Shown: positions 364 to 59,714 of the stretch, piece by piece
Layout of the letters: each line of letters starts with the position of its first letter
Position numbering within the stretch: position 1 is the first letter of the stretch
Origin: a phage
Sequence record: OZ346151.1
DNA length: 64,000 nt
Strand: one strand, 5' to 3'
The notes under the pieces: generated by a model
Databases searched by the model: none
What the model was told of the DNA's origin: nothing
Seen by the model: the letters and a program-made list of their open reading frames with translations, nothing else
Translations under genes and position numbers: made by a program

Positions 364-1050
364 ATGGCAGAGATTAAGTCGGATGTTAACCACATCCACA
401 CTCTGCCAGATTTTGTTCAGGGAGGTCTTGACTACCTGCCTGGAGATTTTCTGGCTGAGAAGGTTAATTTAGTCACATTCTTAACCGTATACCTTAAAAG
501 GTTGGAGGATGTTGATAAGATGCTGGTAGGTTTGGCTGAAGGAAGATTGCTTAACAATGCCAGCGGAAGATACCTTGACGAAGTTGGTAATCAACTTGGT
601 ATTCTTAGGAATGGACTTTCAGATGCTGATTTTCGTGCCACACTAATTATTCAGCAGGCCGCAGCATCAATGGGCGGGACTCGCGAAGATGTCATCTCCA
701 CCTTGCGACAATTGTTCGGAAGAGACAATTTCGATACGTGGAAAGGAGACAACTTCAGGTTTGACATAAATATTAGAAAAACTTGCTTTGACATATTGCA
801 GTCTATCGATCAGATCTTAGATATGCTACCATTGCCTTGTCATTTGCGTCTTACAGAATCGCAAGGGCAAGCTTTTGGTTTTGAAGGGGACTCTACAGCT
901 CTTGGCTTCGGATCAGTATGGGAAGAAAACCAGTTTGGAGTTGGTGGACTGGCTACTTTGCTGTATGTTCCTGACGTAAGACCTGATTGGGACACCACAA
1001 CCATTTATTGTGAAAGTATTACAGTAAACGCAACTAGACAGGAGGGTTAA
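364..1050 (+). CDS. tail/baseplate structural protein (228 aa)
   Basis: ATG start; stop overlaps next start (TAATG) indicating translational coupling in the structural operon; function inferred from position only. Confidence 0.45.
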   Translation: MAEIKSDVNHIHTLPDFVQGGLDYLPGDFLAEKVNLVTFLTVYLKRLEDVDKMLVGLAEGRLLNNASGRYLDEVGNQLGILRNGLSDADFRATLIIQQAAASMGGTREDVISTLRQLFGRDNFDTWKGDNFRFDINIRKTCFDILQSIDQILDMLPLPCHLRLTESQGQAFGFEGDSTALGFGSVWEENQFGVGGLATLLYVPDVRPDWDTTTIYCESITVNATRQEG

Positions 1051-3122
1051 TGGCAACAGCTGTTTTTAAACCTTACCGTGATTACTCTACAATGGCTGCA
1101 CGGTTTCATTACCGAACAGTTCAGGATACTGCCGTTCCTGGTAGGGATTATGATCATGTTGAGGGCGATGTAACTATCCCAGTTGGGGCAACCAGTATTG
1201 AGATCCCCGTGGAAATTGTTGACAAATTACCCAACAGGTTGCCAAGAAGCTTCTTTATGGAGTTTTCATCAAAATCTCAAGGGGTGATGATTGGAACACA
1301 AAGGGCGAAATGTACAATAGTTTCAGATGAGAATCTTGACAGGATATCTTGGGATACTGTTGAGGAGAGAATGTTTCACCCAAGATATTGGGTTACAACC
1401 ACTCAGCAGACTGAAAGTACCTGTATTGTTGCAGATAACAACTGTTGTATTAACCGTTTAGTGTCAAGAACATATGGAGGTATGGCTGGGTGCATTTGGG
1501 AAACAGTTGACAAGTATGACCATTTCGGTATTGGGTTTGATGATCACTATGAGATGAGAAACACCAAGCTTTGGTTCAGAATGTCAATAACCAACGCCAG
1601 CAACTTCTCCACTCCTGAAAAGATGATTATGACTGTAGACCTTGTTGATGGCACAATCATCTATGTTCCTTTAGCTCAATATGCTGTCAGCATCTCAGAG
1701 GATAAGAATGTTGCAGAAATTCATATTGATTTTGAGGACTGCGTCGGGATGGACCAGAACAACAACATGATGGGTGTTGATCCTCGGCAGGTGAGAAGGA
1801 TTTTAATACCGCTTATGCCTAAAGACTGGGTAAGTAATAGCACAGACCCGAGAACGGAAAATGTAAAGTGTGAGTTGCGCCTAGATCTGCTTCAGCCAGA
1901 CACAGGCTGGAAAATGATGCAACTTAACAATATCCAGGTGAGAGAGCACGATGTTGGGATCTGCACCGCATATGACGATATGTGGAACGTGTCTCCTTTA
2001 AGGGTGTTGAACAATATCAAGCGTCTGGGCTATACCGGAACCATAAACCATTATGTTGGTATGAGTCATTATTATGACTACACATGGTCAGGAACCCAAT
2101 GGTCTATAAACAGAACAGGAGCGCTAAACGCTGCAGCTTATAAATGGCATGATGATTTTATGTACAATGCCAAACGACATAACTTCGACGTTATGCAATC
2201 TGTAAGTTTTGAGCTTTTCAGCGATGCCTGCCCGTTGGAATGGACCCAAAGAGACTGGAACGATAACTACGCTAAAACAGGGTATACACCTTGTAGCTAC
2301 CTCCTGTCTCCAACCATTGAAGAGGGTATGAATTTCCTTACTGCAGTATTTAAGAATTTTGCATCAGCCGCTATGAGAAACAACCTGCCAGTGATTATGC
2401 AGGTTGGTGAACCGTGGTGGTGGTACAATACCGATACTCGTAGACCTTGTATTTATGATTACCCTACAAAACAGGCGTTTTATGATGAGACAGGCGAGTA
2501 TGCATTAGATATTGGGACTATTGACGATCCTAAAACTGGCGGTGTTTACGATAAGTATGTAGCATTTTGTCGTGGTAAGCTTGGCGCTCGTATTGCGGCT
2601 ATTTCAAAGGCAATAAAGGCACACGCTGCATCAGCTCAGATGACAGCTCTGCTGTTTTTCCCAACCATTATGGAAACCGAGCTTACGCAAAAGCTTAACC
2701 TTGCTGACCAATATAAAAAGGAAGCAGGTGCTCTTGATTTCTTCTGCACCGAGTGCTACGATTGGGTGATGCAGGGAGGTATTGAAAAGGCAAAAGAGTC
2801 TGTAAACATACCTATCGTTAAGTTAGGTTGGCAACCGTCTGAAATACAATACCTTGCAGGGTTCGTTCCTAGTAAAGAGCTTGCTCCGGTATATGGCTAC
2901 GACCCAACCAGGAATTACCAAGAATTTTTATGGAGATGTATCTGCGGAAACATGGCAACCATAGAGTATAGATACCCTGAGGTAAAACAGTATGTGTGGG
3001 CATACCCGCAAGTAATGTCTGACAGCATCACTGTTACAGCCAGAGATTCTACCGTGCTTCATATGGGGCAGGTTGCTCTGAAAGGGTATGTAGAAGATGT
3101 TGTCCCTCCAGACTTCTCATAA
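1050..3122 (+). CDS. large tail structural protein (690 aa), possible baseplate or receptor-binding component
   Basis: Long uninterrupted ORF with GGAGGG RBS immediately upstream of tail-fibre genes; no catalytic motif recognised. Confidence 0.45.
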   Translation: MATAVFKPYRDYSTMAARFHYRTVQDTAVPGRDYDHVEGDVTIPVGATSIEIPVEIVDKLPNRLPRSFFMEFSSKSQGVMIGTQRAKCTIVSDENLDRISWDTVEERMFHPRYWVTTTQQTESTCIVADNNCCINRLVSRTYGGMAGCIWETVDKYDHFGIGFDDHYEMRNTKLWFRMSITNASNFSTPEKMIMTVDLVDGTIIYVPLAQYAVSISEDKNVAEIHIDFEDCVGMDQNNNMMGVDPRQVRRILIPLMPKDWVSNSTDPRTENVKCELRLDLLQPDTGWKMMQLNNIQVREHDVGICTAYDDMWNVSPLRVLNNIKRLGYTGTINHYVGMSHYYDYTWSGTQWSINRTGALNAAAYKWHDDFMYNAKRHNFDVMQSVSFELFSDACPLEWTQRDWNDNYAKTGYTPCSYLLSPTIEEGMNFLTAVFKNFASAAMRNNLPVIMQVGEPWWWYNTDTRRPCIYDYPTKQAFYDETGEYALDIGTIDDPKTGGVYDKYVAFCRGKLGARIAAISKAIKAHAASAQMTALLFFPTIMETELTQKLNLADQYKKEAGALDFFCTECYDWVMQGGIEKAKESVNIPIVKLGWQPSEIQYLAGFVPSKELAPVYGYDPTRNYQEFLWRCICGNMATIEYRYPEVKQYVWAYPQVMSDSITVTARDSTVLHMGQVALKGYVEDVVPPDFS

Positions 3123-3134
3123 TCAGGAGATAAA

Positions 3135-4175
3135 ATGTCAAAACCTAGTTTTCCATTAGAGATTTGGGCAGAGGAGGATCAGGTTCTGCCTAACACCCAC
3201 AGACAGAACAGGCTACGCCCGATCGATGATTTGTGGAGAAAAGGTTGGGATCTTGGTCAAAAGCCATCCTGTGAAGAACTTAACTATATTTTCAATATGC
3301 TCGGAACTTGGGCAAAATACATTGCTGACGAGCAGATCCCCGCTCAAGAAGGCCGTTATCTGGTACGTGATAATAACTTGAGCGATCTTTTGAACATCCC
3401 TGTTGCCCGTAGAAACCTTGGGATTATCACTAAGGAAGAGGCAGACGCCAGGTATGTAAAAGTTACAGGTGATACAATGACAGGCCCCTTGGGGTTGCAA
3501 CGTATCAACTTTAAAGCTGCCGAGACAGATAAGGCTTGGATAGAGACAACTATTGGCCCAGATAAGACAACTCTCGACTTTGGGTTAAGTGATAATACCG
3601 GGTCGTTTGATGATGGTGGTACATCTACAGTGGATGCGTTTCGTTGGAGATTCCAGCCAACTCAGCCGGATATTAATCCAGAGTTCACTTTGATGTACCT
3701 TAACGCGATCACGGCTAATCGTGCGCTGTTGAAAGTGGTAGGCAATGTTGAAGTTGTCGATAACATGAGGTGCAATAACCTTACTATCAGCAATACAGCA
3801 ACATTCACCAACTGTAATGTGGCTAGTCAGTTGACGGCTGGGTCAGTATATGTTAATGGTGGTGCAAGTTGTGACAGTATGGTTGTAAGAAGCCAGCACT
3901 GTGTTGTCGGTAACAGAAATGTGGTGCGCTCCGTGAATGGAGTGACGGCTAACGGTAACGGTGATGTAACGATCACTATCCCGCAGACAGGTGTGCAAGA
4001 CATCAGAATCGGTGCAAGACTTGTGGACGGCGTTTCTGAATCTCCAATCCGCAACGGCTACGTTGTCACAGGCTGGCATTTCGGTGACAAAAAAGAGATG
4101 CGTGGTTCAACCTACTGGGCAGGACCCTTACAAAAACTTGTAAATGGTCAATGGATCACTGTTAATTATGCATAG
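3135..4175 (+). CDS. tail fibre protein, paralogue 1 (346 aa)
   Basis: AGGAGA RBS; N-terminus MSKPSFPLEIWAEED and C-terminus QKLVNGQWITVNYA nearly identical to the 5188..6231 paralogue; Gly/Asn/Thr-rich C-terminal half typical of fibres. Confidence 0.55.
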   Translation: MSKPSFPLEIWAEEDQVLPNTHRQNRLRPIDDLWRKGWDLGQKPSCEELNYIFNMLGTWAKYIADEQIPAQEGRYLVRDNNLSDLLNIPVARRNLGIITKEEADARYVKVTGDTMTGPLGLQRINFKAAETDKAWIETTIGPDKTTLDFGLSDNTGSFDDGGTSTVDAFRWRFQPTQPDINPEFTLMYLNAITANRALLKVVGNVEVVDNMRCNNLTISNTATFTNCNVASQLTAGSVYVNGGASCDSMVVRSQHCVVGNRNVVRSVNGVTANGNGDVTITIPQTGVQDIRIGARLVDGVSESPIRNGYVVTGWHFGDKKEMRGSTYWAGPLQKLVNGQWITVNYA

Positions 4176-4189
4176 ATCGGAGGACTAGC

Positions 4190-4774
4190 ATGAAAATACT
4201 TCAAGAGTTTAAACTTTACCAACCAGGATCTGGCGAATACCACTCCAACAAGGAAACCAAGGAGCTGACCCCTCAAGAGGTAGAGGATTACACCGCATAC
4301 ACTGGGTATTTTTTACGTAATGATGATGGTGATTGGTATGTGCAGTCACGAACATTACGACAAGAAAATCCAGGGTGTATCTTCCTACTTGTTGACGAGA
4401 AGGGAATTCTTAAGACATCTACAGAAGAACCTGATGCCTTATGGCCTGCTCCAGGTCTTCGTGTGGTTATCGCCAAAAAAGAAGAGGTACCAGAAAACAT
4501 TATGCTTCACCACGACGCTTTGCGTTTAGTTGGTGATGAATTTGTCACAGACAATGAATTCTTTGTTCAACAGGCAGAGGGTGTCATAGAGACAGAACTT
4601 GCTTGGGCTACTGCTAGAATTGGTGCCTATCAAGACATGATTGACCTTGAATATGATCTTACTGATGACCAGAAACGTAACATCAGAGATTTGAAAATGT
4701 ACAGGGTAAAACTTCTTGAAATAGATACATCTAAAGCCCCTGACATTTTCTTCCCAGAGCGACCTACCCTCTAA
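4190..4774 (+). CDS. hypothetical protein, possible tail-fibre assembly or accessory protein (194 aa)
   Basis: GGAGGA RBS; immediately follows fibre gene; role inferred from position only. Confidence 0.4.
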   Translation: MKILQEFKLYQPGSGEYHSNKETKELTPQEVEDYTAYTGYFLRNDDGDWYVQSRTLRQENPGCIFLLVDEKGILKTSTEEPDALWPAPGLRVVIAKKEEVPENIMLHHDALRLVGDEFVTDNEFFVQQAEGVIETELAWATARIGAYQDMIDLEYDLTDDQKRNIRDLKMYRVKLLEIDTSKAPDIFFPERPTL

Positions 4775-4785
4775 GAGGAGGTGTT

Positions 4786-5100
4786 GTGGAGTTGGATTTG
4801 GCGGCATTGTACGGTATCTGCATGGGTACCGTTGTCCCGATCTGTGTATGGGCTTTCAACCAGTGGCACACCAAATGGAAAGACATTTCCAAGAGGTTGG
4901 ATGAGCTGGAGAAAGACCTCATCTTAGTGAAAAACAGTATGGTTACAAAAGATAAACTTGATTCCGTTATAGAGACCCGGTTAAGCAAGCTAGAGGCCGA
5001 TATTAACGACCTTAAGCAGGATGTCAGGACAGATGTCTCCGGCATCAGAGCCGATGTACAAAAGATTTTGCACATGCTCGTAGAGCATAGTAAAAGGTAA
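4786..5100 (+). CDS. small membrane-anchored coiled-coil protein (about 104 aa, start uncertain)
   Basis: GTG start after AAGAGGAGG; hydrophobic N-terminal segment followed by heptad-like charged region. Confidence 0.4.
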   Translation: MELDLAALYGICMGTVVPICVWAFNQWHTKWKDISKRLDELEKDLILVKNSMVTKDKLDSVIETRLSKLEADINDLKQDVRTDVSGIRADVQKILHMLVEHSKR

Positions 5101-5128
5101 ACAAAGGTCAGAACGGAAAGGACTCCTC

Positions 5129-5157
5129 TTGCATTTTGTTCCCTAAAGTGTTAAAAT
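5129..5157 (+). promoter_or_regulatory. sigma70-like promoter (TTGCAT-17-TGtTAAAAT) upstream of second fibre cassette
   Basis: -35 and extended -10 hexamers with 17 bp spacing read directly from the sequence. Confidence 0.4.
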
Positions 5158-5187
5158 AGTCCTAAGGAATTTTCTCAGGAGAACGTG

Positions 5188-6231
5188 ATGACTAAACCAG
5201 TTATCCCTCTTGATATTTGGGCCAATCAGGATGTTGTGCTTGAAAATACGGGAGAGTTGAATAAGTCTCAACCAAAAAAAGAAGAGAGATTGAAAGGTTG
5301 GGATATGACACAAAGAGTGGCATGTGAAGTTGTTAACTTTGAACTTCACATGCTTTCTGCGTGGTTAAAGCATTTAACAGAAGATGTTGTCCCAGGATGG
5401 GATAATAGATTCTTAAGGGTCACTAATAATCTAGCAGACGTTCCAGACAAAGCTGCTGCACGTCAAGTTCTCAATGTATACTCGCCTGAAGAAATGGACG
5501 ATCTGTATGTTGACAAGTCTGGAGACATAATGACTCAGACTCAAACTTTAGGCCTTCAAAGAATCGAGTTTGCATCTGCGTCAACAGACAATGCGGCAAT
5601 ATATACCACCATAACTCCAGACAAGACGACGATGGACTTCTGGATTATGGACAACATCGGTGGTGCTGACGGCACAGACCTTGATGATCCTTCTCACCAA
5701 ATAGACGGGTTCCGTTGGAGATTTCAACCTTCTGGTGGGCAGCCTGTGTTTTCGGCTATGAAGCTCAATGCTATAACTGCCAACCGTGCAAGACTGGCTA
5801 TCCAAGGAAATCTTGAATGCAACGATGCAAAAAGTTCCTCTGCAAATGCCAATGCGGTCACGATACCAAGAGCCACTGTTAACGGACAACAATCCTGCGG
5901 AAGCGCTCAAATAGGTGGAAGAGTTGATTGTAACGATGAAACCGTTAGAGGCCAATATGCAACCGTTGGTGGAAGAAACGTGGTCCGCAGGGTAAACGGT
6001 AACAGCGCAGACGGTAGTGGTAACCTTACTGTCCCTATGCCCAGTAGAGGGGTTGACGATGTAAGGATAGCGAACCGTTTCAAAACCACCTACAGAGAGT
6101 CAAGGGTCTACCCTGGACATGTGATGTGCTCTGGTAACTACGCTTATAAACACCCTTATCAAGGTGATTACTGGACAGGTGCTATCCAAAAACTTGTAAA
6201 CGGTCAATGGATCACTATATCTTATGCTTAA
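5188..6231 (+). CDS. tail fibre protein, paralogue 2 (about 347 aa)
   Basis: ATG after GGAGAA RBS; shares PLDIWANQD N-terminus, LGLQRIEF, FRWRFQP and QKLVNGQWITISYA C-terminus with 3135..4175. Confidence 0.55.
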   Translation: MTKPVIPLDIWANQDVVLENTGELNKSQPKKEERLKGWDMTQRVACEVVNFELHMLSAWLKHLTEDVVPGWDNRFLRVTNNLADVPDKAAARQVLNVYSPEEMDDLYVDKSGDIMTQTQTLGLQRIEFASASTDNAAIYTTITPDKTTMDFWIMDNIGGADGTDLDDPSHQIDGFRWRFQPSGGQPVFSAMKLNAITANRARLAIQGNLECNDAKSSSANANAVTIPRATVNGQQSCGSAQIGGRVDCNDETVRGQYATVGGRNVVRRVNGNSADGSGNLTVPMPSRGVDDVRIANRFKTTYRESRVYPGHVMCSGNYAYKHPYQGDYWTGAIQKLVNGQWITISYA

Positions 6232-6242
6232 AAAGAGGGTAA

Positions 6243-6509
6243 ATGAAACTAACTCAGTTTTTATGGGGACTGGTTGCGGAATCTGATGACCCTACGAAAG
6301 TATCCCAATCTAAGCTATGGTCGAACATAGGCATGGTGGTGATGACTGGGGTGTTTATTCATATGGGGTATAATGATACGCTTCCTGAATGGTATGCGTG
6401 GATATATGCACCTTCAGTAGCCTGCCCCCAGCTTATTAGCAAATTCATCTCGCTCCGGTGGGGTTGCCAGCACCCTGACCACGTTAAAAACGAAGAGCAA
6501 AAAGCTTAA
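6243..6509 (+). CDS. hypothetical small protein downstream of fibre paralogue 2 (88 aa)
   Basis: AGAGGG RBS and ATG; position analogous to 4190..4774. Confidence 0.4.
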   Translation: MKLTQFLWGLVAESDDPTKVSQSKLWSNIGMVVMTGVFIHMGYNDTLPEWYAWIYAPSVACPQLISKFISLRWGCQHPDHVKNEEQKA

Positions 6510-6518
6510 GGAGAAATC

Positions 6519-8264
6519 ATGGCGCAAGACATGACAAGCTTCGAGCAGGCGGTAGATCAAGTAATTGTTGATTCTGAACGTTTGCACTTGATTGTCAACG
6601 GTAACGCTGTGGATGAAGTTGTCGTAGAGGATGGGACCACTATCCCTACGGTACGAAAAGCCATGCTTGACACCCTTTATTTTAAAACGCCACCAATCCC
6701 TTGGGCGTATGGTGCATCCACAACAGTTTTTAACCAGTTGTATGAGTTTAAAGGGGATACAGGCACTCAGTGGTGGTACGCCCCAGCAGCATCAAAATCT
6801 AACCCGGTTAGAATGCCAGCAGATCCTTCACAATCTCCAAACTGGAGATTATACACCGACTCTGCAGTAATGGCAAAATACTACGCAAAACTTAACAGCC
6901 CAAGGTTCGAAGGTGACCCGCGAGTACCTACACCTCCAATGGACGATAAGTCAGAGTCCATAGCAAACACAGAGTTTGTTGTTGACTATGTTGATAGCAT
7001 ATTTAAAGCCATGGAGGGGATGAAAGTTACTGTAGGATCTTTGGTGGTAAAAGGTCTTACAGAACTCGCTAACACTATAGTTGGTGGCACCCTTACCTTA
7101 CATGGACCTGTTAATGGGGCAGATTCTACTGCACGCTTTAGGAATCTAATCCTCACGGCAAATACTTCTACACTTACTTTTGCGTGGAGCGATCCTAAGC
7201 ATGCAGACTGGAGAAGTACAGAGCTGCAACCTCATGAAGTGTCCACCCACAGGGTTATAGCTGACACTATAACTTCTGGGAAACCAGTGGCTAATAATAA
7301 CGATGTGCATTTTGATGGTCTGGGTAATAACTTTTTTGACTACGTGTACATTCGTGGTAATGCCATGAAGGCAGCAACCGAACCGACATTGCAGGTAGAT
7401 GGGACCACCAGGGTTAAGAACCTTGAGGTGACAGGTACCGTTACAGGGATAACATACTCTGTCGATGGCACCATGATCTACCCTAGCTATATTGAAAGCA
7501 CTGGTGATGCATTGATAAATGGCGATTTGGAGGTTGGCGGGTCTGTAGTTATTCGAGGTACGGCCTCTATCCAAAACATAGCTCTGAATACCTTAAGAGT
7601 CAATGAGCGTGCAACTTTTGAAGGAGAAGGGCTTACAGCCAACAAAGGTGTAATTACCGAGCTGACAACAACCACTTTAACTGCAACAGCTGCAAACTCT
7701 GAAAACTGCAACGTTACCCGCAACTTGCAGGTAAATGGAGATGTCAGTTTAAACGCAGCAGGGCCTGGCACCACCTCTGTTCACAACCTTGAAATATCCG
7801 GCACGGTGACTGGGTGGTTGCCTGACTTCTCTAATGTCACCTTTGTCTGTAATGGCATTAACTCCAGTGGCAAGATAACCACCTCTCAAGAAATTGAGGC
7901 GGGTAAAACCATTACTGCCCCTACTTTCCACGCAGGAAAGGTAGATTTTGATTTAGAGGAGGTTGACGCGTCCAGTGGGACATGGACACCTAACGGGCAG
8001 GCCAGTATGTATGTTGTTCACGCGAAAGGGGATTTTACAATAGGACAGTGGCCTGGGACATCAGCGGAAGATAAACCTTATCCATTCACTGCGGTTATCT
8101 ATGTAATTCAGGATGCTGTAGGTCACAACGTGACTTTGCACGATAAGTATGCTATCCTGTCGGCAACACCTGTTATTAACAACAAGGCTAACAGTGTTAC
8201 CTTGCTGCAATTAACGTATTGTGGTGTTGGTGATATCGTAGACGTAGTAATTGCACAACGTTAA
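6519..8264 (+). CDS. tail fibre protein with conserved side-tail-fibre collar motif (581 aa)
   Basis: AAGGAG RBS; contains NSPRFEGDPRVPTPPMDDKSESIANTEFV, matching the conserved G-x-P-x-APTP...IATTAFV region of lambda Stf, P2 H and Mu S type fibres; Thr/Gly/Asn-rich C-terminal part. Confidence 0.65.
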   Translation: MAQDMTSFEQAVDQVIVDSERLHLIVNGNAVDEVVVEDGTTIPTVRKAMLDTLYFKTPPIPWAYGASTTVFNQLYEFKGDTGTQWWYAPAASKSNPVRMPADPSQSPNWRLYTDSAVMAKYYAKLNSPRFEGDPRVPTPPMDDKSESIANTEFVVDYVDSIFKAMEGMKVTVGSLVVKGLTELANTIVGGTLTLHGPVNGADSTARFRNLILTANTSTLTFAWSDPKHADWRSTELQPHEVSTHRVIADTITSGKPVANNNDVHFDGLGNNFFDYVYIRGNAMKAATEPTLQVDGTTRVKNLEVTGTVTGITYSVDGTMIYPSYIESTGDALINGDLEVGGSVVIRGTASIQNIALNTLRVNERATFEGEGLTANKGVITELTTTTLTATAANSENCNVTRNLQVNGDVSLNAAGPGTTSVHNLEISGTVTGWLPDFSNVTFVCNGINSSGKITTSQEIEAGKTITAPTFHAGKVDFDLEEVDASSGTWTPNGQASMYVVHAKGDFTIGQWPGTSAEDKPYPFTAVIYVIQDAVGHNVTLHDKYAILSATPVINNKANSVTLLQLTYCGVGDIVDVVIAQR

Positions 8265-8273
8265 TATATCTAA

Positions 8274-8298
8274 CCGCTCCTGACGGGGCGGTTTTCTT
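8274..8298 (+). terminator. rho-independent terminator or attenuator between fibre gene and giant gene
   Basis: CCGCTCC-tgac-GGGGCGG hairpin followed by TTTTCTT. Confidence 0.5.
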
Positions 8299-13996: not shown

Positions 13997-14197
13997 TTAG
14001 TAATACTCCCAACATGCCCCATCTTCAGACGGCTTGACGCGCTTACCTTTATGGTCAACATAGGTATAGCCACAACCTTCACAAATAACAGGTGCTGCAT
14101 AGCCTTCCTTCCACTGATCCTCAGTGATCAGACCTTCCAAATCTTTGCAGTCAAAGCCAAACAACTCTTCAGAGCAATCTTTACAAAAATCAGCCAT
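13997..14197 (-). CDS. small Cys-rich zinc-ribbon-like protein (66 aa)
   Basis: ATG with GAGGA RBS; two CxxC pairs (CKDC ... CEGC). Confidence 0.5.
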   Translation of the reverse strand: MADFCKDCSEELFGFDCKDLEGLITEDQWKEGYAAPVICEGCGYTYVDHKGKRVKPSEDGACWEYY

Positions 14198-14200
14198 TTC

Positions 14201-14608
14201 TCAGTCCTCGCATTTAACAAATTTTTCTATAGATCCACCAAGCACAGCTTGTTGTTTGATGGCACTTTCTTCATCATAGTGGATAGACTTATGTTCCGTA
14301 CCTCCAAACTTACCTGTGTGGAAGGTGTGCACCCAAATCTCTTTAGGAAGGGATTTATTCTCTTCCTCCACCAACTCCCACATACCCCACAAGTGATCTG
14401 TGATATCTCTGATGAAATATCCCTCGCCGAGGTTTGTATTCACACTGTAAGCTGATTCGTGATCTCCGCAAATATAACGGAAGGCAGTGTACTCTTTACC
14501 TGGTGTGAAGTGAGTATCCATTAGTATGGCTGTTAAAGAATAAGGGTCTCGAAAGCCCAAGAACTTTAGTTTAACAATTTCGACATTTACATCTGCAAGA
14601 TTATCCAT
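14201..14608 (-). CDS. hypothetical protein (about 136 aa from ATG)
   Basis: ATG preceded by GAGGAG; function unknown. Confidence 0.45.
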   Translation of the reverse strand: MDNLADVNVEIVKLKFLGFRDPYSLTAILMDTHFTPGKEYTAFRYICGDHESAYSVNTNLGEGYFIRDITDHLWGMWELVEEENKSLPKEIWVHTFHTGKFGGTEHKSIHYDEESAIKQQAVLGGSIEKFVKCED

Positions 14609-14769
14609 GACGATCTCCTCTGTTTGGTTGGTGAGAATTATATATAGATCTGGTGGTGGCGTCAAGCTTAATTTTAAGAGATCTGAGAGGGTATTTTATT
14701 CAGGAAGGCAATCGCACAGGGTGGAGAAATTTATGAAGGCACAGGCCTCGTTTGAGGCCTTAAATTCTA

Positions 14770-15150
14770 TTATGACACTTTGACATAGCGCTCTGACAAA
14801 GCTGGGAAGCCAAAAGTAGTGCCTATACTACCATAGGCTATCCACCATTGGAGTTCATCGTGACACCATTTTCCGATCAGGAAGGTGCTGGGATAGCGGG
14901 TCAGTATTTTGGCATAAGCTTTAGGATCTGCATCTTCTGGGATAATGATGCTTGGAATATCTTTGTTATGACCACAGCAGCAGTTTAGCGTTTTCAAACC
15001 TGCTGCCCACAAACTCATGATAGGCTTAGCCATACACTTATCAAGGCACACACGTTTTTTGCCGTCACGAAGATTTTTAGGCACATCAACGATAACATTT
15101 GGATGCTTGGCACCTTTTACTTTCCAATTATAGGATTTACACTTGCACAT
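14770..15150 (-). CDS. Cys-rich hypothetical protein (126 aa)
   Basis: ATG with GGAG RBS; multiple Cys clusters (CKC, CLDKC, CCCGH). Confidence 0.45.
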   Translation of the reverse strand: MCKCKSYNWKVKGAKHPNVIVDVPKNLRDGKKRVCLDKCMAKPIMSLWAAGLKTLNCCCGHNKDIPSIIIPEDADPKAYAKILTRYPSTFLIGKWCHDELQWWIAYGSIGTTFGFPALSERYVKVS

Positions 15151-15376
15151 TTAATCAGTCTCCGTCTAGAAAGCCGCACTATACGTTTTTGAGGTATACT
15201 TTACTTAAAGTCTTTATCACCTGCCACGATTGCATGAATCCACTCATTGTGATGCTCAATAGCGGTGAGATGTAACATGATGTAGTGATCGTCATTGCCA
15301 AACATGATATGATAGGCTTTGGCAGCATTTTGATATAACTTCCACATCAGGTAATGATATCTTCGCCTCATGGCTC

Positions 15377-15841
15377 TTACTCCGGTTCAGGATCTGGGTA
15401 ATCTTCAATAATAAAGGGCCATCCGTTCCGCTTAGCCTCAGACTTATACTCAATCTCCTTCATTGCAAACTCTAACTGATTCTTAGCCGGAATACATGCC
15501 GGAGAATCATCAATCCAGATATCTGGGTAGATATCAAACTGCGCCAGGTAGGCTGCCTTCTGAACACCACCTGTGTAGAACACACCAACATCGAGCTCCT
15601 TGCGCCAATACTCAATGTCTACATTGTCTTGAGTAATGAATCGGAAAGTCACAAGGTAGACTGTCCACCCCTCCTTCTTCAGATCCCTGATCAGGCGGGA
15701 GAAGATGAAAGGGCTCGCATTAAACGTTCCATCAAAGTCGATGGCAATGATGTGCGTGCCGTGGCGAGTCTCATATGGATTGCTCGTGGTAAGATTGCTG
15801 TAATTAAAAGGGACTTCTTCCCCGCAGTAGCTGTAGTCCAT
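15377..15841 (-). CDS. HAD-superfamily phosphatase (nucleotidase or polynucleotide-phosphatase-like)
   Basis: HAD motif I IAIDFDGT (DxDGT) and motif IV IWIDDSP; ATG start abuts upstream stop (TGAatATG). Confidence 0.6.
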   Translation of the reverse strand: MDYSYCGEEVPFNYSNLTTSNPYETRHGTHIIAIDFDGTFNASPFIFSRLIRDLKKEGWTVYLVTFRFITQDNVDIEYWRKELDVGVFYTGGVQKAAYLAQFDIYPDIWIDDSPACIPAKNQLEFAMKEIEYKSEAKRNGWPFIIEDYPDPEPE

Positions 15842-15843
15842 AT

Positions 15844-16119
15844 TCACACCTTCTCGTTGATAAATTTACGGGCGGTTTGGTGAGTTGTTTCTGCTGTCTT
15901 CAGAATGATATTAATTTTATCGTCAAGATCATTCATCTCGGCAGTTAATTCAGGAATCTCTCCGGCATGCATGGTGAAATCATACATAGACATGCCCAAG
16001 ATCTCATTGATGCGGCGGTTGCATTCTGCAGCACGCTGGTTCATTTTCCAAGCTAACACCAAAGCCTCCTGCGTAGCCTCTAGTGCAAAATCTAATACGT
16101 CGGCCTCTTCTTTCGTCAT
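15844..16119 (-). CDS. hypothetical protein (91 aa)
   Basis: ATG with AGGAGAG RBS. Confidence 0.45.
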   Translation of the reverse strand: MTKEEADVLDFALEATQEALVLAWKMNQRAAECNRRINEILGMSMYDFTMHAGEIPELTAEMNDLDDKINIILKTAETTHQTARKFINEKV

Positions 16120-16176
16120 CTTAGTCTCTCCTGTTGTATTGTTGGTAGGTGTATGAATACCTTATAACTCACCTTT

Positions 16177-16743
16177 TTATTCAAACTGCAATAGTAAGTC
16201 CACCACCGCGCTAGGTCTGTCAACAAATTCCCCAGGTCCACATGCCCACAGAGGGTATCCGTCTACATACCGCCAAATCCAACCTGCAGTGTGGAGTTCG
16301 AGCAGGGCAGTACCGTCCTTACTGTCAACCACTCTTTCCCACAGTGTCGGGCAGCGAAGCTTGAGGATCGGATCCCCTCCCTTATACCCATCCATGTAGA
16401 TACCCATTGCAAAGTTCAGCATCATCTTTTTGTGCACTGATCTTTTACTGAGGGTACTCATCACTTCCTCTTTGTGAATGTTTGTAAGCTTCTCCTTGGC
16501 TACCCGCAGATCGTTGCAACCATTGTTCAGCAGATCTTCCAGACACTTGATCCGAAGGTCGTGAATGTCTTTGTCGTGTACCGTTGGCACAGGGTCGTAG
16601 CGGTATAGCACTGTTGATACAAGGTTGCTCGGGTGTGGGTCTGACAGCAACCCATAACCCCAATACTCTTCTGTATCTGAAAGGACAAGACACCCAATGT
16701 CTCTGTCAAGCTTTCCTGTGTTGTAAGCCACATTGACCGCCAT
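16177..16743 (-). CDS. hypothetical protein (188 aa)
   Basis: ATG start in compact leftward operon; no motif recognised. Confidence 0.45.
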   Translation of the reverse strand: MAVNVAYNTGKLDRDIGCLVLSDTEEYWGYGLLSDPHPSNLVSTVLYRYDPVPTVHDKDIHDLRIKCLEDLLNNGCNDLRVAKEKLTNIHKEEVMSTLSKRSVHKKMMLNFAMGIYMDGYKGGDPILKLRCPTLWERVVDSKDGTALLELHTAGWIWRYVDGYPLWACGPGEFVDRPSAVVDLLLQFE

Positions 16744-16745
16744 GA

Positions 16746-16991
16746 CTATAGCTCCACTAGCAAAGTGCTTTCAAAGTGACGTTCATGCAGACCGTTGTAA
16801 GGGACCACTTCCACAACGCCATCACGGACATATGGGGCCATCATGGTGGTATAATCTCCAAACGGGTTGGTATTGTCACTAACCACAACCACCTTCTGCC
16901 CTTCCTTGGCAGAGTGCCAAATAGATCTGCACTTCATCAGGTGTTCGAGAGCCCCAGGTAAAATTTTGTTACGTTCTTTACGGGTCTTCAT
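16746..16991 (-). CDS. hypothetical protein (81 aa)
   Basis: Tightly packed with neighbours, 2-nt intergenic gap. Confidence 0.4.
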   Translation of the reverse strand: MKTRKERNKILPGALEHLMKCRSIWHSAKEGQKVVVVSDNTNPFGDYTTMMAPYVRDGVVEVVPYNGLHERHFESTLLVEL

Positions 16992-17437
16992 AACAGGTAT
17001 AGCTCCTTATGAAAGTGATCTTTTAATTTCTCACTGAGAAACTTCTTGATACCTTCCTCTAAAGTGTTTTCGATGTAGTCCAGCTTAACTGCTTCGATGG
17101 ACATATCATAGATCGCCAGCTCTAAGCTGTCAAGTCCCATCATAGCATGAACCATAAGATTTTCATCTTCAGATACATTCAGGGGACTTCCTATAACATC
17201 TGGAGGCAGAATAGTTTCCCAATTATTCTGGGTGGTAGTTCTCCCTCCCTCTACTTTACGGCGCAGTTCGAATGTGTTCTTAGTGTAGAACACTTCATAA
17301 GAAACGATACGACTGTCGCTCTCGTAATAAACGAAGTTCAGGTAGGAGCCTAGCCGCAGTCGGCAAACTTCTACCCCAAACCATTGTTTCTTATAAGAAT
17401 TCAGGCTAATGCTGTCGCATTCACGTTTGCTCAACAC
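16988..17437 (-). CDS. hypothetical protein (149 aa)
   Basis: Overlaps downstream gene by 4 nt. Confidence 0.45.
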   Translation of the reverse strand: MLSKRECDSISLNSYKKQWFGVEVCRLRLGSYLNFVYYESDSRIVSYEVFYTKNTFELRRKVEGGRTTTQNNWETILPPDVIGSPLNVSEDENLMVHAMMGLDSLELAIYDMSIEAVKLDYIENTLEEGIKKFLSEKLKDHFHKELYLL

Positions 17438-17453
17438 GGCTCTCTCCTTTTTG

Positions 17454-17690
17454 TTAATCTTCGTAAATCAGGATTTCTGCTTTAGGTTTTCGTGCTTTCA
17501 TGTCCAGCTCTATCCAGTGCACCATAGCTGTTTCAAGAAAAACAGCCTGGATGCATCCGTCCTCAGCAGCGTGTCCTAGCAGCATAACAAGATCTTCTCC
17601 TTCGTCATCTGCACCACGAACATACAGAATCTCCCCGGGTTCAAAATCTTTAACAACCTGATTGTTGGATAATTTACGAATTTTCGCCAT
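17454..17690 (-). CDS. small protein, member of tandem paralogue family (78 aa)
   Basis: Shares size and FxPGxxV ... I(L/I)xE C-terminal pattern with the three genes upstream. Confidence 0.45.
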   Translation of the reverse strand: MAKIRKLSNNQVVKDFEPGEILYVRGADDEGEDLVMLLGHAAEDGCIQAVFLETAMVHWIELDMKARKPKAEILIYED

Positions 17691-17691
17691 A

Positions 17692-17955
17692 TTAGAAACC
17701 CTCTAAAAAGCTCTTGTAGAAAATAATTTCAGTATCTACACCAGTCACGATCTTATCGTTCCTGATTTCATCTGTAAGGTAGGTGTCAAAACGCAGAACC
17801 TGTGTGGTGTTGTCACACATCCACTCAGCTGTGACCATTGCGAAAATCTTAGCATCTTCATTATCTGGTGTGAATGTTACCACCTCACCGCACTTAAACT
17901 TTTCGATAGGCTGAGTGTTAGCTTTCGGTTCTGCGATAGTGATTTTTGTGGTCAT
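17692..17955 (-). CDS. small protein, tandem paralogue family (87 aa)
   Basis: Same length class as neighbours; FKCGEVV motif. Confidence 0.45.
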   Translation of the reverse strand: MTTKITIAEPKANTQPIEKFKCGEVVTFTPDNEDAKIFAMVTAEWMCDNTTQVLRFDTYLTDEIRNDKIVTGVDTEIIFYKSFLEGF

Positions 17956-18218
17956 TATTCTCCTCCTTCTTTTGAATAGCTTGTCTCTCCAAGGATGGTA
18001 ATTTTGGTGTCAAGCTCTGTAACTTTCATGTTTGGCGGCAGATCGTACAACTCATTATTTTCTAAATCGAACCCCCACACACAATGTTCTCCTGTTTTGA
18101 CAATCATAACTATGTTTTGAATGCCGTCTCCGTCGCAACTTACCACAGTCCCACACGGAAAGCTGTCTGCACGCTTTTTGTTCTTCACCTTAGAATTGAA
18201 TACAATGCTGGTAGCCAT
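17955..18218 (-). CDS. small protein, tandem paralogue family (87 aa)
   Basis: MAT N-terminus, K-rich segment, PCGTVV, FDL and I-x-I-L-G-E shared with 18218..18481. Confidence 0.5.
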   Translation of the reverse strand: MATSIVFNSKVKNKKRADSFPCGTVVSCDGDGIQNIVMIVKTGEHCVWGFDLENNELYDLPPNMKVTELDTKITILGETSYSKEGGE

Positions 18219-18481
18219 TATTGTTCCTCCACCATAACTTCGCCAATAATTTCTATGCAGGCATCCATTTCTGTAACAACCAAACTGTGAGGTAGTTCTA
18301 CAAACACCTTTCTGAACAGGTCAAATACCCCAACATATATGTTTGCAGGATGTGATTTTACAACAAGTGCTGTATTCACATCCCCAAGTTCATCAACAAA
18401 CATCACCACAGTGCCTGGAGCTACTGAGGACAGATACTTCTTAGTTTTACGGTTTGATGCAAATTTTAACTCTGTTGCCAT
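18218..18481 (-). CDS. small protein, tandem paralogue family (87 aa)
   Basis: MAT N-terminus, PGTVV, FDL, IEIIGE; clear paralogue of 17955..18218. Confidence 0.5.
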   Translation of the reverse strand: MATELKFASNRKTKKYLSSVAPGTVVMFVDELGDVNTALVVKSHPANIYVGVFDLFRKVFVELPHSLVVTEMDACIEIIGEVMVEEQ

Positions 18482-18496
18482 AAATAACCTCCTCTC

Positions 18497-19978
18497 TTAC
18501 TTAGCGTACTCGATTAATTCCACAGTTTTACCAAAGCTCGGGATATAATTTTTATTATACCCCTCAGTGAGGACCCATAGAGTATCGTACTTTTTCCACT
18601 TGTTGTCAACAACCTTTTGTTCAAAGTTATGCTCAAAGTATAGGTCGGTCAGGACGATGACATCTTTTGCATTAGGTATGTTGGCATCCAGATACTCGAA
18701 CACGCAAGCAGCTGTTGTGCCCCATGTTGAGTGGACCTCATAGTTGATCATCTCGTCTATGTTGCCGCGAGTGTATACTTTAACCTCTCCAACCTCAGTT
18801 GACCAACAGAACATTGTAACCTTAAACTCTTTATACAGATTGCACAATCCGGTGATTTCATTGAACATTTTCTTTAAAGTTCTTTGAGAGATCGAGCCAG
18901 AAACGTCTAAAGCCACCACAATATCTATAGTGTTTTCCGGATTACGACCAGGAACAATAACGTGCTGGTTCTTGTTTATAGCCCCAACTTTTCGCATTGT
19001 GCTGGTCAAAGACCCAGATCGGCGACCAGGTTTTCTGTAGGTCAGTTCGGCCTTTCTTTTAGACAACATACGTTGCTTAATGATGTCTATATAGTTGATT
19101 ACAGGCTTACCTCTGTTCTTGACAAACTCACGCACCGCCTCAGGGCAACGGCCTCCGGACGCTTGCATTGCTGCCTCCAGCATATCACCAGAGTCCTGCA
19201 TGGCCTGATCTTTATCAGATTGGCTGATTACAGGTTGTGGCTGATCATACCCCATAGCCTTTCCAAGATTATCACTGGTGCCACCGTTCCCACTCATGTG
19301 ATCATCGGTTTGTCGCTTATCACTTTGAGAGTTCTCACCTTTACCGTTCTTACTTTTACCGTTATTCTGATCTCTTTGCTTATCAAGAACTGCATAAACG
19401 TTCTCAGCAATCCATCCATGAAACTTCATGTCGCAGTAGCAGCTGGCTAAGAAGCCAAAAGGCTTACCTTTCATGAACGTAGTGCTTTTCCCCTTCGGGA
19501 AGAAAACACAAGGGGGTTTGCTAAAGTCAACCACAAGGCCTGTGTTGATAACGTGATCACAAGCAATATTGAACAGTTCCGGCTCAAAGCTTTTACCACG
19601 GACTAGGTGATCACAGATAATATGCCCCACCTCATGTGACAGAAGGAAGGCCACCTCTTTCACAGATTTTGGGGAATAGAAAACTTCAGCCATCTCAAAC
19701 TGCTCGTCAGTTAGAGAAGCCTTAAGAATAGCCTTGCGCTCATCAGCCAATCCCATAATGAACTCAGGACTGTAATAGATGCGTTTATGGTCGGTTGCCA
19801 TGGTGGAGCACCATGTGTGGTTTTCTACGAACTGCAACCCTGACAGTAGTGTGCCATAAAACGGCAGCTTTTCAAGGAGATACATACGTGCAGCCTGCAA
19901 CATTCTCAGGGCATCATCTTTCTGCGAGGCAATGATTTCTGAACTTCTGCTATCCATTAAAACTCCAGAAGGGGCCAT
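18497..19978 (-). CDS. VWA-domain protein with N-terminal HExxH metallopeptidase-like domain (DUF2201-like architecture)
   Basis: HEVGH zinc-binding motif in LLSHEVGHIICDHL; C-terminal VWA MIDAS motif IVVALDVSGSI (DxSGS). Confidence 0.65.
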   Translation of the reverse strand: MAPSGVLMDSRSSEIIASQKDDALRMLQAARMYLLEKLPFYGTLLSGLQFVENHTWCSTMATDHKRIYYSPEFIMGLADERKAILKASLTDEQFEMAEVFYSPKSVKEVAFLLSHEVGHIICDHLVRGKSFEPELFNIACDHVINTGLVVDFSKPPCVFFPKGKSTTFMKGKPFGFLASCYCDMKFHGWIAENVYAVLDKQRDQNNGKSKNGKGENSQSDKRQTDDHMSGNGGTSDNLGKAMGYDQPQPVISQSDKDQAMQDSGDMLEAAMQASGGRCPEAVREFVKNRGKPVINYIDIIKQRMLSKRKAELTYRKPGRRSGSLTSTMRKVGAINKNQHVIVPGRNPENTIDIVVALDVSGSISQRTLKKMFNEITGLCNLYKEFKVTMFCWSTEVGEVKVYTRGNIDEMINYEVHSTWGTTAACVFEYLDANIPNAKDVIVLTDLYFEHNFEQKVVDNKWKKYDTLWVLTEGYNKNYIPSFGKTVELIEYAK

Positions 19979-19990
19979 CGGCCCCTGTCA

Positions 19991-21031
19991 TTATTTAACG
20001 TGTTTGAAAATACCTGCCAACTCGGTCATTGTCATGCGGGTGGTCTTCATAAGATCTGTCATAGCTTTCTCCATAATTGGAGATACTACCATAAAGTTTC
20101 CTTTAGTGAAACCTTTATTCCAGTCGGTCACCAACAGGGGTTTAAGTCCAGCTCCAAGACGTTCACCAGTTAAAGCACAGCATTTGCGAATATACGAACT
20201 CTTAAATTGGCTGAACGACAGATCAACTTTCATACCTACATCGTAGAACGTTTGACAATAGAAAGTGTAAGCTTTGGCAATCTCAACATCATCAGGTAGT
20301 GCAGGAACCTCTTCTGTAAGCTCCTCTTCGACCTCCTGAGTCTCTTTTTCCTCTTCATGCACCTGTTGCGTCATTTCTTCAATCTCTTCTGTGATAGGCT
20401 CGTTTACAATGTCGGAAATGTGCTTCTTGGGTGCACGATAAGTAACTTTAGACATCGGTAGCATATCTTCCTCCTCTTCTTCGTCAAAGAGTGCTAGTTT
20501 ATCCTCTTCCGTTCCATATTGCAAGATGAAATCTTCAAAAGTATAATCACCTTTCAATTTCTCCATACGCTCTTCGCTCAGGTGGAGCATCATCTGCTGG
20601 ACAATTTTTCGATCAGTTTCGTCTTTAATCAAGACTGCAGTCTTTTTATCTACCAGACAGTCCTTTAGAGAGTTGCATCTCAATCCCACCACACAACAGT
20701 TATCAACCGCATAAGGACCTTCATCATCTATCCGCTCCAGAGATGGGTAGAAAGGATTCCCCAGCCCGTTTTCATCTGTGTGCATGTCAAAAGGTATAAG
20801 GGTATAGTCGCATACTCCATCTCCTAAAAGTTTTTTACCAAATAGGAGGTATTCTTCCCATGACAGGTCGAACTCTATATCTCGTTTCCGTGCGTTATTC
20901 TGTTTGCGTCTATATTTTTTGAGCAAGCGCTCTAACTCTTCTGGTGTATAATATTTTTCAAGATTCATGAGTCGTCTCTCGTGCTCTGTAAGTGAAGAAA
21001 TCGTATCAATTGTCTCAACAGATGTCAACAT
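19991..21031 (-). CDS. Glu-rich protein with two internally duplicated Cys-containing domains (degenerate HNH or His-Me-finger-like)
   Basis: N-terminal CDYTLIPF...SLERIDDEGPY...N..K repeated C-terminally as CCALTGERL...LLVTDWNKGF...N; acidic linker; weak RBS so start uncertain. Confidence 0.4.
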   Translation of the reverse strand: MLTSVETIDTISSLTEHERRLMNLEKYYTPEELERLLKKYRRKQNNARKRDIEFDLSWEEYLLFGKKLLGDGVCDYTLIPFDMHTDENGLGNPFYPSLERIDDEGPYAVDNCCVVGLRCNSLKDCLVDKKTAVLIKDETDRKIVQQMMLHLSEERMEKLKGDYTFEDFILQYGTEEDKLALFDEEEEEDMLPMSKVTYRAPKKHISDIVNEPITEEIEEMTQQVHEEEKETQEVEEELTEEVPALPDDVEIAKAYTFYCQTFYDVGMKVDLSFSQFKSSYIRKCCALTGERLGAGLKPLLVTDWNKGFTKGNFMVVSPIMEKAMTDLMKTTRMTMTELAGIFKHVK

Positions 21032-21041
21032 CAAAAACGTG

Positions 21042-21070
21042 TTGACTTTACTCTAACTCCACAATATAGT
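21042..21070 (+). promoter_or_regulatory. sigma70-like promoter (TTGACT-17-TATAGT) in the divergent intergenic region
   Basis: Near-consensus hexamers with 17 bp spacing, about 40 nt upstream of the 21111 ATG. Confidence 0.5.
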
Positions 21071-21110
21071 GCACCCATTCGAAAGAAAACTAACATAGGA
21101 GCACTTACTT

Positions 21111-22010
21111 ATGGCAAATCTTAACAGTTTTAGTACGCGGTGGAAACAGGACATAACAACCAATCTTTCAGCTGGGGACATCCTTTCTGCAATTTACGAG
21201 GCTTTAGATGATAAAGCTACTTCAAAAGCGGTTTGTACCAACCCATTAATTCCTATAGTGATGAAGGTTATTGAGCGTAGATTGGTATCTGGGTCTGATA
21301 AGTGGACATATTTAGATAATGAAGGACACACCTATTCCAATGGGTATGTCGATATAAAAGTAGAATACGCGGTATCATACCGCCGGAGCGGTTCTGTAAC
21401 TTTCAACTTCTCTGGAGGTTTTCGATCTCTGGCTACCTCACCTTTTGTTTCCTCAGAGGAGAAGTATGAGCTGCCATTTCTTTGGATGATGGCTAACGCG
21501 ACAGGAAAAACCCCCGTTAGCATCCGAGTAAAATACAACTACAACGGATCTAGTAAGATCTATGCCGAAAGTGTCTCAGCAAGTTTTTATTTTGTGATGG
21601 GGGATGGAATCCTCAAACATATAAAGATGTGCGATATGCATGATGTTATAAATGAAGTGACTGATAAGAATGTTCTAGTGAAAGACCTCAACAATTTTTA
21701 TACACCTGGAGACTATTACGTCAGCCGTCCACTGTGCATCTTTAATGCCGCACACCCTCTAGGTGAGTATTTGATCGCCAATAGCGATATTGCCAATAAC
21801 CGCTTCGAGGTAGCAAGAGTTCAGAATGAGGTATTGACATCTTGCAAGAGCGGTGATAAGTTTACCGAAGAAGAGATGGGTGTTTTAGAAATGATGGGAT
21901 ATAAGTGTAGCCTTTGGGTAGATGAGGTGTTTAATGATTGCATCTATGGACAGGATATTTACCCATTAAAGAAGTATACTGATACAAGTTTAATTTATGC
22001 GAGGGTTTGA
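21111..22010 (+). CDS. hypothetical protein (299 aa)
   Basis: ATG with AGGAGC RBS; first gene of the rightward unit. Confidence 0.5.
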   Translation: MANLNSFSTRWKQDITTNLSAGDILSAIYEALDDKATSKAVCTNPLIPIVMKVIERRLVSGSDKWTYLDNEGHTYSNGYVDIKVEYAVSYRRSGSVTFNFSGGFRSLATSPFVSSEEKYELPFLWMMANATGKTPVSIRVKYNYNGSSKIYAESVSASFYFVMGDGILKHIKMCDMHDVINEVTDKNVLVKDLNNFYTPGDYYVSRPLCIFNAAHPLGEYLIANSDIANNRFEVARVQNEVLTSCKSGDKFTEEEMGVLEMMGYKCSLWVDEVFNDCIYGQDIYPLKKYTDTSLIYARV

Positions 22011-39885: not shown

Positions 39886-39968
39886 CAAATACCTATTGTA
39901 ATTTACAGAAGGGGATGCTAAAATAGTGTCTCCTTCTATGTTGTTCAAATAAAATCGGAGATTCCATA

Positions 39969-51197: not shown

Positions 51198-51241
51198 TAA
51201 ACCCTGTTAAAATACCACGCAGTTAACAAGGAGTAATGATC

Positions 51242-56194: not shown

Positions 56195-56202
56195 AATCCA
56201 CC

Positions 56203-56529: not shown

Positions 56530-56552
56530 CTCAAATCTCCTTCATAGATAGT

Positions 56553-56582: not shown

Positions 56583-56584
56583 CA

Positions 56585-56890: not shown

Positions 56891-56918
56891 AGTAAGAGTC
56901 TCCTTATGTTGTTTTAAA

Positions 56919-59710: not shown

Positions 59711-59714
59711 ATTA

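Follow-up and report, generated by a model that had tools for sequence, protein, structure and literature searches.

Why does a phage carry two related tail fibre genes so close together, and do their products do the same job in the virion? We asked this of a phage sequence (record OZ346151.1), of which a stretch of 64,000 nucleotides (nt), referred to here as the window, was analysed. Its plus strand encodes fibre A at 3135..4175 (346 amino acids, aa) and fibre B at 5188..6231 (347 aa from the ATG, with a GTG start possible at 5185). A preliminary description had read positions 3135-6509 as two tandem tail fibre cassettes, indicative of dual receptor specificity or ongoing host-range diversification. 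The reading that we favour, with a probability of about 0.6, is that A and B are two short tail fibre paralogues on the baseplate, A being the ancestral-type fibre and B an old duplicate that probably docks differently and/or binds another variant of the lipopolysaccharide (LPS) core.

Two paralogous fibres in a Vequintavirus genome

Positions 3000-6600 of the window share 98-99.5% identity with over 100 rV5-like coliphages of the genus Vequintavirus, phages naswa and magaca being the closest (99.5%), and on this sequence likeness we assign the source genome to the same rV5-like genus. Gene by gene, from gp33 to gp28, order and length agree with those tabulated for rV5. Fibre A is the counterpart of gp33, a short tail fibre paralogue, and is followed on the plus strand by genes for a 194-aa tail fibre assembly protein or chaperone (TFA; 4190..4774, gp32), a 104-aa protein with a single transmembrane (TM) segment (4786..5100, gp31), fibre B (gp30), an 88-aa membrane protein (6243..6509, gp29) and a 581-aa tail fibre (6519..8264, gp28, phrog_4549). 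At the same positions, the annotation of BASEL phage CarlMeissner reads short tail fiber, tail fiber chaperone, hypothetical, short tail fiber and hypothetical. Set beside rV5 gp33/gp30 and gp32, this is the identical locus: order, lengths and protein sequences (~99% identity) agree, and no sequence difference separates the two.

The pair itself, its paralogy, the single chaperone, the P030 promoter motif, the homology to Mu gpS/gpU and the idea of dual LPS specificity are already known, having been in print since 2013 and 2021. For rV5, gp30 and gp33 were reported to be 42.3% identical, and two LPS chemotypes were proposed (Kropinski 2013, PMC3606486). The Vequintavirus phages of the BASEL collection were described as having two paralogous short tail fibres and one chaperone, homologous to those of phi92-like phages and to Mu gpS/gpU (Maffei 2021, PMC8594841, S5D Fig). 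The fibre pair adds no new kind of system.

That the locus holds two tandem paralogous tail fibre genes, as first described, was borne out: both open reading frames are present, BLASTP aligns their products over the full length at 43% identity (E 2e-95), and each matches phrog_4465 ('tail fiber protein') from end to end (A 1-346, E 1.8e-171; B 1-347, E 5.4e-166). A Pfam scan gave no match above threshold for either fibre. The further claim that the two share their N- and C-termini and differ in the centre was right about the C-terminal ~15 residues, which are nearly identical, and about aa 205-245, which align poorly (23% identity, with indels). However, the similarity runs over the full length, the best-conserved block is central (aa 119-148, 70%, within a wider stretch of 58% at aa 119-205), and the N-terminal 118 residues are 39% identical. 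The second low point lies at aa 291-320 (27%), and in the distal region A carries VTGWHFGDKKEMRGSTYW where B has MCSGNYAYKHPYQGDYW in the corresponding place. At the DNA level, the sole sizeable repeat between the two genes is a 62-nt tract at their 3' ends (4113-4174 and 6169-6230, 81% identical), and synonymous sites are largely randomised, with a fraction of identical codons of ~0.3.

Searches against the PDB relate the two ends of these fibres to different structures. In a sequence search, residues 1-108 of A match the short tail fibre (STF) of phage phiTE (9cuy, E 1.4e-19), as do residues 1-83 of B (E 2e-8), and residues 286-343 of A match residues 440-501 of Mu gpS (5yvq, E 1.7e-6). B alone fell below significance against gpS; it aligns with A throughout the tip domain. 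A profile of the family matched residues 1-80 of the phiTE STF (9cuy, E 1.6e-27) and residues 438-503 of Mu gpS (5yvq, E 3.6e-8), with a weaker match in the shaft. As judged from these alignments, both fibres are laid out as an N-terminal docking-type region of ~80-110 aa, a shaft and a C-terminal gpS-type tip of ~60 aa. An AlphaFold2 model of the A monomer, built from a 25-sequence alignment, had a mean predicted local distance difference test score (pLDDT) of 64 and a predicted template modelling score (pTM) of 0.33, low confidence that is to be expected because the fibre is trimeric. With this low-confidence model, the sole significant Foldseek match was 5yvq_A, from the Mu fibre-chaperone complex (E 1.1e-7). 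A motif of the form (Y/F)L..(N)NL(S/A)D(L/V)....(V/A)AR..L(G/N), at aa 71-117 (~3345-3485 in A and ~5398-5538 in B), occurs once in each paralogue and is repeated six times in PDB chain 9zd7, 'short tail fiber gp92'.

Phage Mu obtains two specificities by inversion of its G segment (S/S', U/U'). The likeness of the locus to Mu gpS/gpU (5yvq, 9ki1) covers the tip domain and part of the shaft, together with a Caudo_TAP gene directly 3' of A. The present locus differs in having two complete genes on the same strand with one chaperone, and in an N-terminal docking domain of the phiTE/phi92 type and not the Mu type. An invertible segment of the Mu/P1 type was considered and rejected: both genes are complete on the plus strand, and positions 2900-6700 contain only inverted repeats of 14-18 nt, at chance level.

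The phiTE STF (9cuy, 9mjn) is homologous to A and B over the N-terminal ~80-110 residues but is otherwise a different protein, of 554 aa with a coiled coil and immunoglobulin-like domains, present as a single copy in a flagellotropic phage. Its residues 3-92 form a trimeric joint of three intertwined identical chains attached to wedge 1, and fibre-to-fibre contacts are also seen in phiTE (PMC11972413). In phi92, the homologous gp147 ('fiber III') forms six downward-pointing trimers under the wedge protein gp145, and irreversible binding to the outer membrane has been proposed for it (PMC13450770). The fibre of phi92 (gp147) and PD06 shares with A a tip that is 57% identical and a neighbouring Caudo_TAP gene; it differs in being a single copy with another shaft and an overall identity of 24-29%, and in PD06 the genes that follow, where the window has its block of membrane proteins, are those of a 'lipoprotein' and a colanic-acid-degradation protein. 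T4 gp12 has the same proposed role, LPS-core binding in irreversible adsorption, and an HHpred similarity to 1PDI was reported earlier (Kropinski 2013, PMC3606486). In our searches gp12 was absent from the PDB sequence matches (E<=1), the profile matches (E<=0.01) and the Foldseek list, this last being a weak test with a low-confidence model. We therefore use 'short tail fibre' as a functional label and not as a statement of membership in the gp12 family.

A docking partner for the N-termini can be suggested from the upstream part of the locus. The 228-aa baseplate protein encoded at 364..1050 on the plus strand (rV5 gp35; phrog_4056, E 2.7e-103) is syntenic with a 209-225-aa baseplate gene that lies directly 5' of the fibre gene in PVP-SE1, GAP31, KB57 and PD06. 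Homologous fibres attach to a wedge protein in phiTE ('wedge 1') and phi92 (gp145) (PMC11972413, PMC13450770). From its position, the 228-aa protein might be a candidate to which A and B dock.

Extent, age and conservation of the duplication

The term cassette implies that more than the fibre gene was doubled. Taken literally, a small gene does come after each fibre, but the wording misleads: behind A lie two genes, for the 194-aa TFA and the 104-aa TM protein, and behind B the gene for the 88-aa membrane protein, which has no TFA-like similarity. These three small proteins are mutually unrelated (alignment z-scores of -1.8 to +1.5 against shuffled sequences). The putative chaperone encoded at 4190-4774 has a Pfam Caudo_TAP match at residues 121-192 (E 9e-12) and also matches phrog_136. 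A tblastn search placed its gene once in each of the Vequintavirus records listed, with 250 places over all 248 records that matched, and no second copy was found in the window.

The other two small genes have counterparts in phages with a single fibre. The 104-aa protein (phrog_5345; 'membrane protein, 1 TMD' in the rV5 gene table, PMC3606486) combines one N-terminal TM segment with a coiled coil and is 32-33% identical to the products of syntenic 104-aa genes of PVP-SE1, TH18, Av-05, GAP31 and KB57. The 88-aa protein (phrog_1322, 'membrane protein'; no Pfam match) is 49-52% identical to those of syntenic 87-91-aa genes in the same five phages. By homology and position the former opens and the latter closes a block of membrane proteins conserved throughout Vequintavirinae, for which neither Pfam nor PHROGs gave a function (104-, 157- and 88-aa proteins). 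With unrelated small genes, one TFA per genome, and 104- and 88-aa genes orthologous to a block in single-copy genera, the cassette description does not hold: the fibre gene alone was duplicated.

What B stands in place of emerges from comparison with related genera, for which we used GenBank phage records and one contig from the European Nucleotide Archive (ENA); a scan of IMG/VR for relatives of B gave 4 loci. Among 50,697 phage records searched by tblastn, two fibre copies per genome were found solely in Vequintavirus (~117 records), and one copy in Seunavirus, Mydovirus, Avunavirus, TH18, phi92-like and Certrevirus phages. The order in PVP-SE1, GAP31, TH18, KB57 and Av-05 is fibre, chaperone, 104-aa TM protein, 157-aa protein with four TM segments, 88-aa membrane protein and a fibre of ~585-600 aa. 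B takes exactly the position of the four-TM gene in the window and in every Vequintavirus locus that was read. That gene (phrog_7451) was found in 107 phage records, none of those listed being rV5-like, and it is not in the window; Escherichia phages account for 16 of the 107, as against ~97 Escherichia records of Vequintavirus.

The three-gene membrane block downstream of the chaperone was seen in Seunavirus, Mydovirus, Avunavirus and TH18 (loci L012-L015 and L017, at ~5150-6270), its middle gene being without a counterpart in Vequintavirus, and the four-TM gene reaches as far as Certrevirus (phiTE) at ~32% identity. In Klebsiella phage KB57 (L015) the fibre gene appears to be frameshifted near its 5' end (3501-3700), since tblastn returns it in two pieces and the annotated coding sequence starts at family residue ~40. 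The upstream frame encodes the conserved MAIPTIPLQIWA and then runs into stop codons, the result of faulty sequencing or of a genuine truncation in that isolate.

Of the two copies, A is the closer to the single fibres of other genera. Against the Seunavirus fibres of PVP-SE1 and SSE121 it is 45% identical and B 36%; against PVP-SE1 gp46 in particular A reaches 45%, and B is 35-39% identical to single-copy orthologues. In the tip, A is 57% identical to PVP-SE1, Av-05 and phi92-like phages, and B 33-43%. By its N-terminus, its tip and its place beside the chaperone gene, A would be the canonical, ancestral-type copy and B the derived one.

The ENA metagenome contig (L018) has the same layout as the window, with an A-type fibre that is 74% identical, a chaperone that is 44% identical and a second fibre, 354 aa long. 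Trees that include it place the A-type fibres in one group (bootstrap 1.0) and the B-type fibres in another (0.83), and the duplication is therefore older than the split between the two lineages. B may have arisen either by duplication in place or by acquisition from a close relative.

Among Vequintavirus records, the A protein is at least 99% identical in 101 of 116 and the B protein at least 95% identical in 116 of 117. For a codon-by-codon comparison we used full-length relatives (7 for A, 10 for B) down to ~89% nucleotide identity. All copies compared in this way are intact, with no pseudogene features. The ratio of nonsynonymous to synonymous substitution rates (dN/dS) was 0.013-0.026 for A and 0.054-0.084 for B. 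Variable sites number 16 in A and 37 in B, consist of conservative substitutions, and are densest at aa 206-285 in both fibres, not in the tip. The suggestion of ongoing host-range diversification thus met with near-identity across ~117 records and a dN/dS of at most 0.084, in keeping with an earlier finding of no considerable allelic variation (Maffei 2021, PMC8594841). The pair is fixed, strongly conserved equipment and not a diversifying locus.

Some 16-21 records carry the name 'Campylobacter phage' (MG0656xx, with C. jejuni as host; the single record inspected bears the mark UNVERIFIED). At this locus they share 98% identity with coliphages of the rV5-like or phi92-like kind. Mislabelling or mixed lysates are the probable source, and such records inflate the apparent host diversity in database summaries.

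Proposed mounting, folding and receptor use of the two fibres

At the C-terminus, both copies in the window end in QKLVNGQWIT(V/I)(N/S)YA and both copies in contig L018 in QKLVNGQWITVQTL. The L018 copies are 82-90% identical over the last ~60 residues, and their tips group with each other (bootstrap 0.99). Recent gene conversion between A and B was considered as the cause and rejected. In the window only the short 3' tract (62 nt, 81%) is raised in codon identity, to 0.77-0.83 over ~12 identical residues. In L018, where the tips have ~85% protein identity, the same codon is used in 0.52 of the identical residues. Because codon identity is only moderately raised, the likeness of the C-termini seems to reflect old homogenisation or shared constraint. 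In the simplest reading of these sequences, the extreme C-termini would be alike within a genome because both fibres must fit one chaperone.

The N-terminus of B departs from the family. At seven positions that are invariant in 23 other family members, B-type fibres carry changes (P19E, I30K/E, W34R, Y51F, Y62H, N94V/A and G117Q). All seven fall at or before residue 117, in a stretch that takes in the counterpart of the wedge-docking part of the phiTE fibre (3-92 in phiTE), and B may therefore be mounted differently from A. B has the docking homology to phiTE, but an identical docking mode appears doubtful.

B also seems to have its own transcription start. The 87-nt gap 5' of the gene contains a predicted promoter-like element on the plus strand (5129..5158; TTGCAT-N17-TAAAAT, including TGTTAAAATA), which is unique in the window and identical to the putative late promoter P030 of rV5 (Kropinski 2013, Table S4C, PMC3606486). 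A P030-like element also precedes the second fibre gene in contig L018. A terminator-like hairpin at 8272-8293 equals t028 (Kropinski 2013, Table S4D), and a predicted transcription unit would run from P030 through B and the genes of the 88-aa and 581-aa proteins to t028.

These observations lead us to propose the following. A would represent the ancestral-type gene beside the single chaperone gene, as does the sole fibre in sister genera. B would stem from an old duplication that preceded the split of the uncultured sister lineage represented by L018, and now sits two genes downstream, in the slot of the four-TM gene and under its own predicted late promoter. Both fibres would be made late and folded by the one chaperone, which would explain their like C-termini, and both would be mounted on the baseplate for LPS-core-dependent irreversible adsorption. 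Given its N-terminal and distal divergence, B probably docks differently and/or binds another LPS-core variant. As to the receptor, rV5-like phages need the outer-core GlcI of LPS, and thus waaC and waaG, and the tested Vequintavirinae share the same LPS-core dependence (PMC8594841).

Several points weigh against this proposal. The DTASelect mass spectrometry (MS) table of rV5 lists 19 proteins, namely 61, 60, 64, 53, 52, 133, 79, 152, 82, 34, 237, 41, 62, 235, 106, 37, 1, 27 and 228 (PMC3606486), and a search of its peptides, masses and locus entries found no gp30, gp32 or gp33. The main text of the same paper lists these three under 'total phage proteomics', unlike the MS table in Additional file 5 (Kropinski 2013, PMC3606486), and later papers that cite rV5 virion proteomics for the fibres may rely on the text and not on the table. 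Paralogue-specific tryptic peptides include AWIETTIGPDK for A and IEFASASTDNAAIYTTITPDK for B. In the literature that we searched, neither paralogue is linked to a receptor or given a place on the baseplate; structures of wedge-attached homologues come from phiTE and phi92 only, and phi92 offers six wedge docking sites that two paralogues could either share or split (PMC13450770). The A model is too poor (pLDDT 64, pTM 0.33) for a tip-by-tip structural comparison of A and B, and the 82-90% identity of the L018 tips weakens the part of the proposal that invokes a different receptor. Neighbour-joining gives only moderate support to A and B as sisters (bootstrap 75%), with a signal that varies in mosaic fashion from one part of the gene to another. 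As to the shared chaperone, a phmmer search of the TFA protein against the PDB gave no gpU and no other meaningful match, and its family assignment therefore rests on Pfam Caudo_TAP and phrog_136; the use of this single TFA by B is suggested by gene counts and C-terminal conservation.

The alternatives differ chiefly in where B would sit and what its tip would bind. Kropinski 2013 supplies the one in which A and B trimers are interchangeable on the six wedge positions, their tips bind different LPS-core chemotypes, and a mixed set on the virion broadens host range. Here the distal regions do differ (VTGWHFGDKKEMRGSTYW against MCSGNYAYKHPYQGDYW, 27% over aa 291-320), the tip type of PVP-SE1, Av-05 and phi92-like phages is retained in A (57%) but not in B (33-43%), and both N-termini match the phiTE STF. 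The seven B-specific N-terminal changes argue against the same docking mode, however, the near-identity of the L018 tips (82-90%) means that a tip difference is not a conserved feature of the pair, and all tested Vequintavirinae have the same LPS-core dependence (PMC8594841), so that we regard interchangeable fibres as possible but doubtful. A narrower version of our own proposal, plausible but still tentative, makes B a subfunctionalised fibre and not an interchangeable receptor binder: it would have another mounting site or partner, given docking-region changes at otherwise invariant residues that date from before the split of the sister lineage, its C-terminus would be kept in step with that of A through the chaperone, and its arrival would have gone together with loss of the four-TM gene. 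One could go further and suppose that B is not primarily a receptor-binding protein and serves as a structural paralogue elsewhere, for instance as an adaptor or branch point for the 581-aa fibre. The N-terminal substitutions kept between the two B clusters and the orthology of B across lineages would suit such a part, as would the P030-to-t028 unit in which it is predicted to be transcribed together with the genes of the 88-aa and 581-aa proteins, and the fibre-to-fibre contacts in phiTE (PMC11972413). Yet B retains a complete tip domain and a chaperone-type C-terminus, and single-copy genera mount a homologous 581-600-aa fibre without B, which makes an adaptor unlikely.

A recently duplicated cassette that is still diversifying, or a redundant copy in decay, would account for the closeness of A and B and for the greater variability of B (~3x; 37 sites against 16). 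It is very improbable given that A and B are only 43% identical with an identical-codon fraction of ~0.3, that the duplication is older than a lineage whose A has only 74% identity, that dN/dS is at most 0.084 with both genes intact in the relatives read and present in all ~117 Vequintavirus records, and that neither flanking inverted repeats nor an invertible segment was found. Least credible to us are heterotrimeric fibres made of A and B. The shaft at aa 119-205 is the best-conserved part between them (58-70%), and the chaperone and the C-terminus are common to both, but we know of no precedent for a heterotrimer in this fibre family, the predicted promoters are separate, and the joint of the phiTE STF consists of three intertwined identical chains, in a region that is altered in B (PMC11972413).

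Neighbouring features and meaning for rV5-like phages

Upstream of A, positions 1050-3122 encode a 690-aa protein with Calx-beta and NCTSP_N domains and the TIM-barrel_NCTSP domain (E 4e-80), of the phage N4 gp65 type. A protein of this kind is present at the same position in TH18 and Av-05 and absent in PVP-SE1, GAP31 and KB57. In rV5 it corresponds to gp34, which is among the few tail proteins in the MS table (10.3% coverage, PMC3606486), and a 2026 preprint assigns NGR glycan binding to the N4 gp65-type class in Vequintavirus and Justusliebigvirus. The late-promoter-like motif TGNTAAAATA has three further exact copies on the plus strand (28826-28835, 39916-39925 and 51205-51214), giving 4 in the window where 0.8 would be expected by chance. 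GC skew is negative at 14000-22000 and 56000-64000, consistent with minus-strand gene blocks, as in the divergent transcription units of rV5.

Beyond what we could find in Kropinski 2013 and Maffei 2021, the present analysis adds the exchange of the four-TM gene for B, values of dN/dS, the orthologues in a sister lineage, the B-specific N-terminal changes, the likeness of the C-termini within a genome and the count of one detectable chaperone gene per two fibres in all listed Vequintavirus records. The four-TM gene is conserved from Seunavirus to Certrevirus, and if B is indeed a subfunctionalised fibre, its loss would have coincided with the arrival of B. Phages of the rV5 type are common candidates for therapy and biocontrol of E. 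coli and have broad host ranges. For their engineering, what matters is whether the two fibres would provide two specificities for the terminal receptor or would fill two structural positions.

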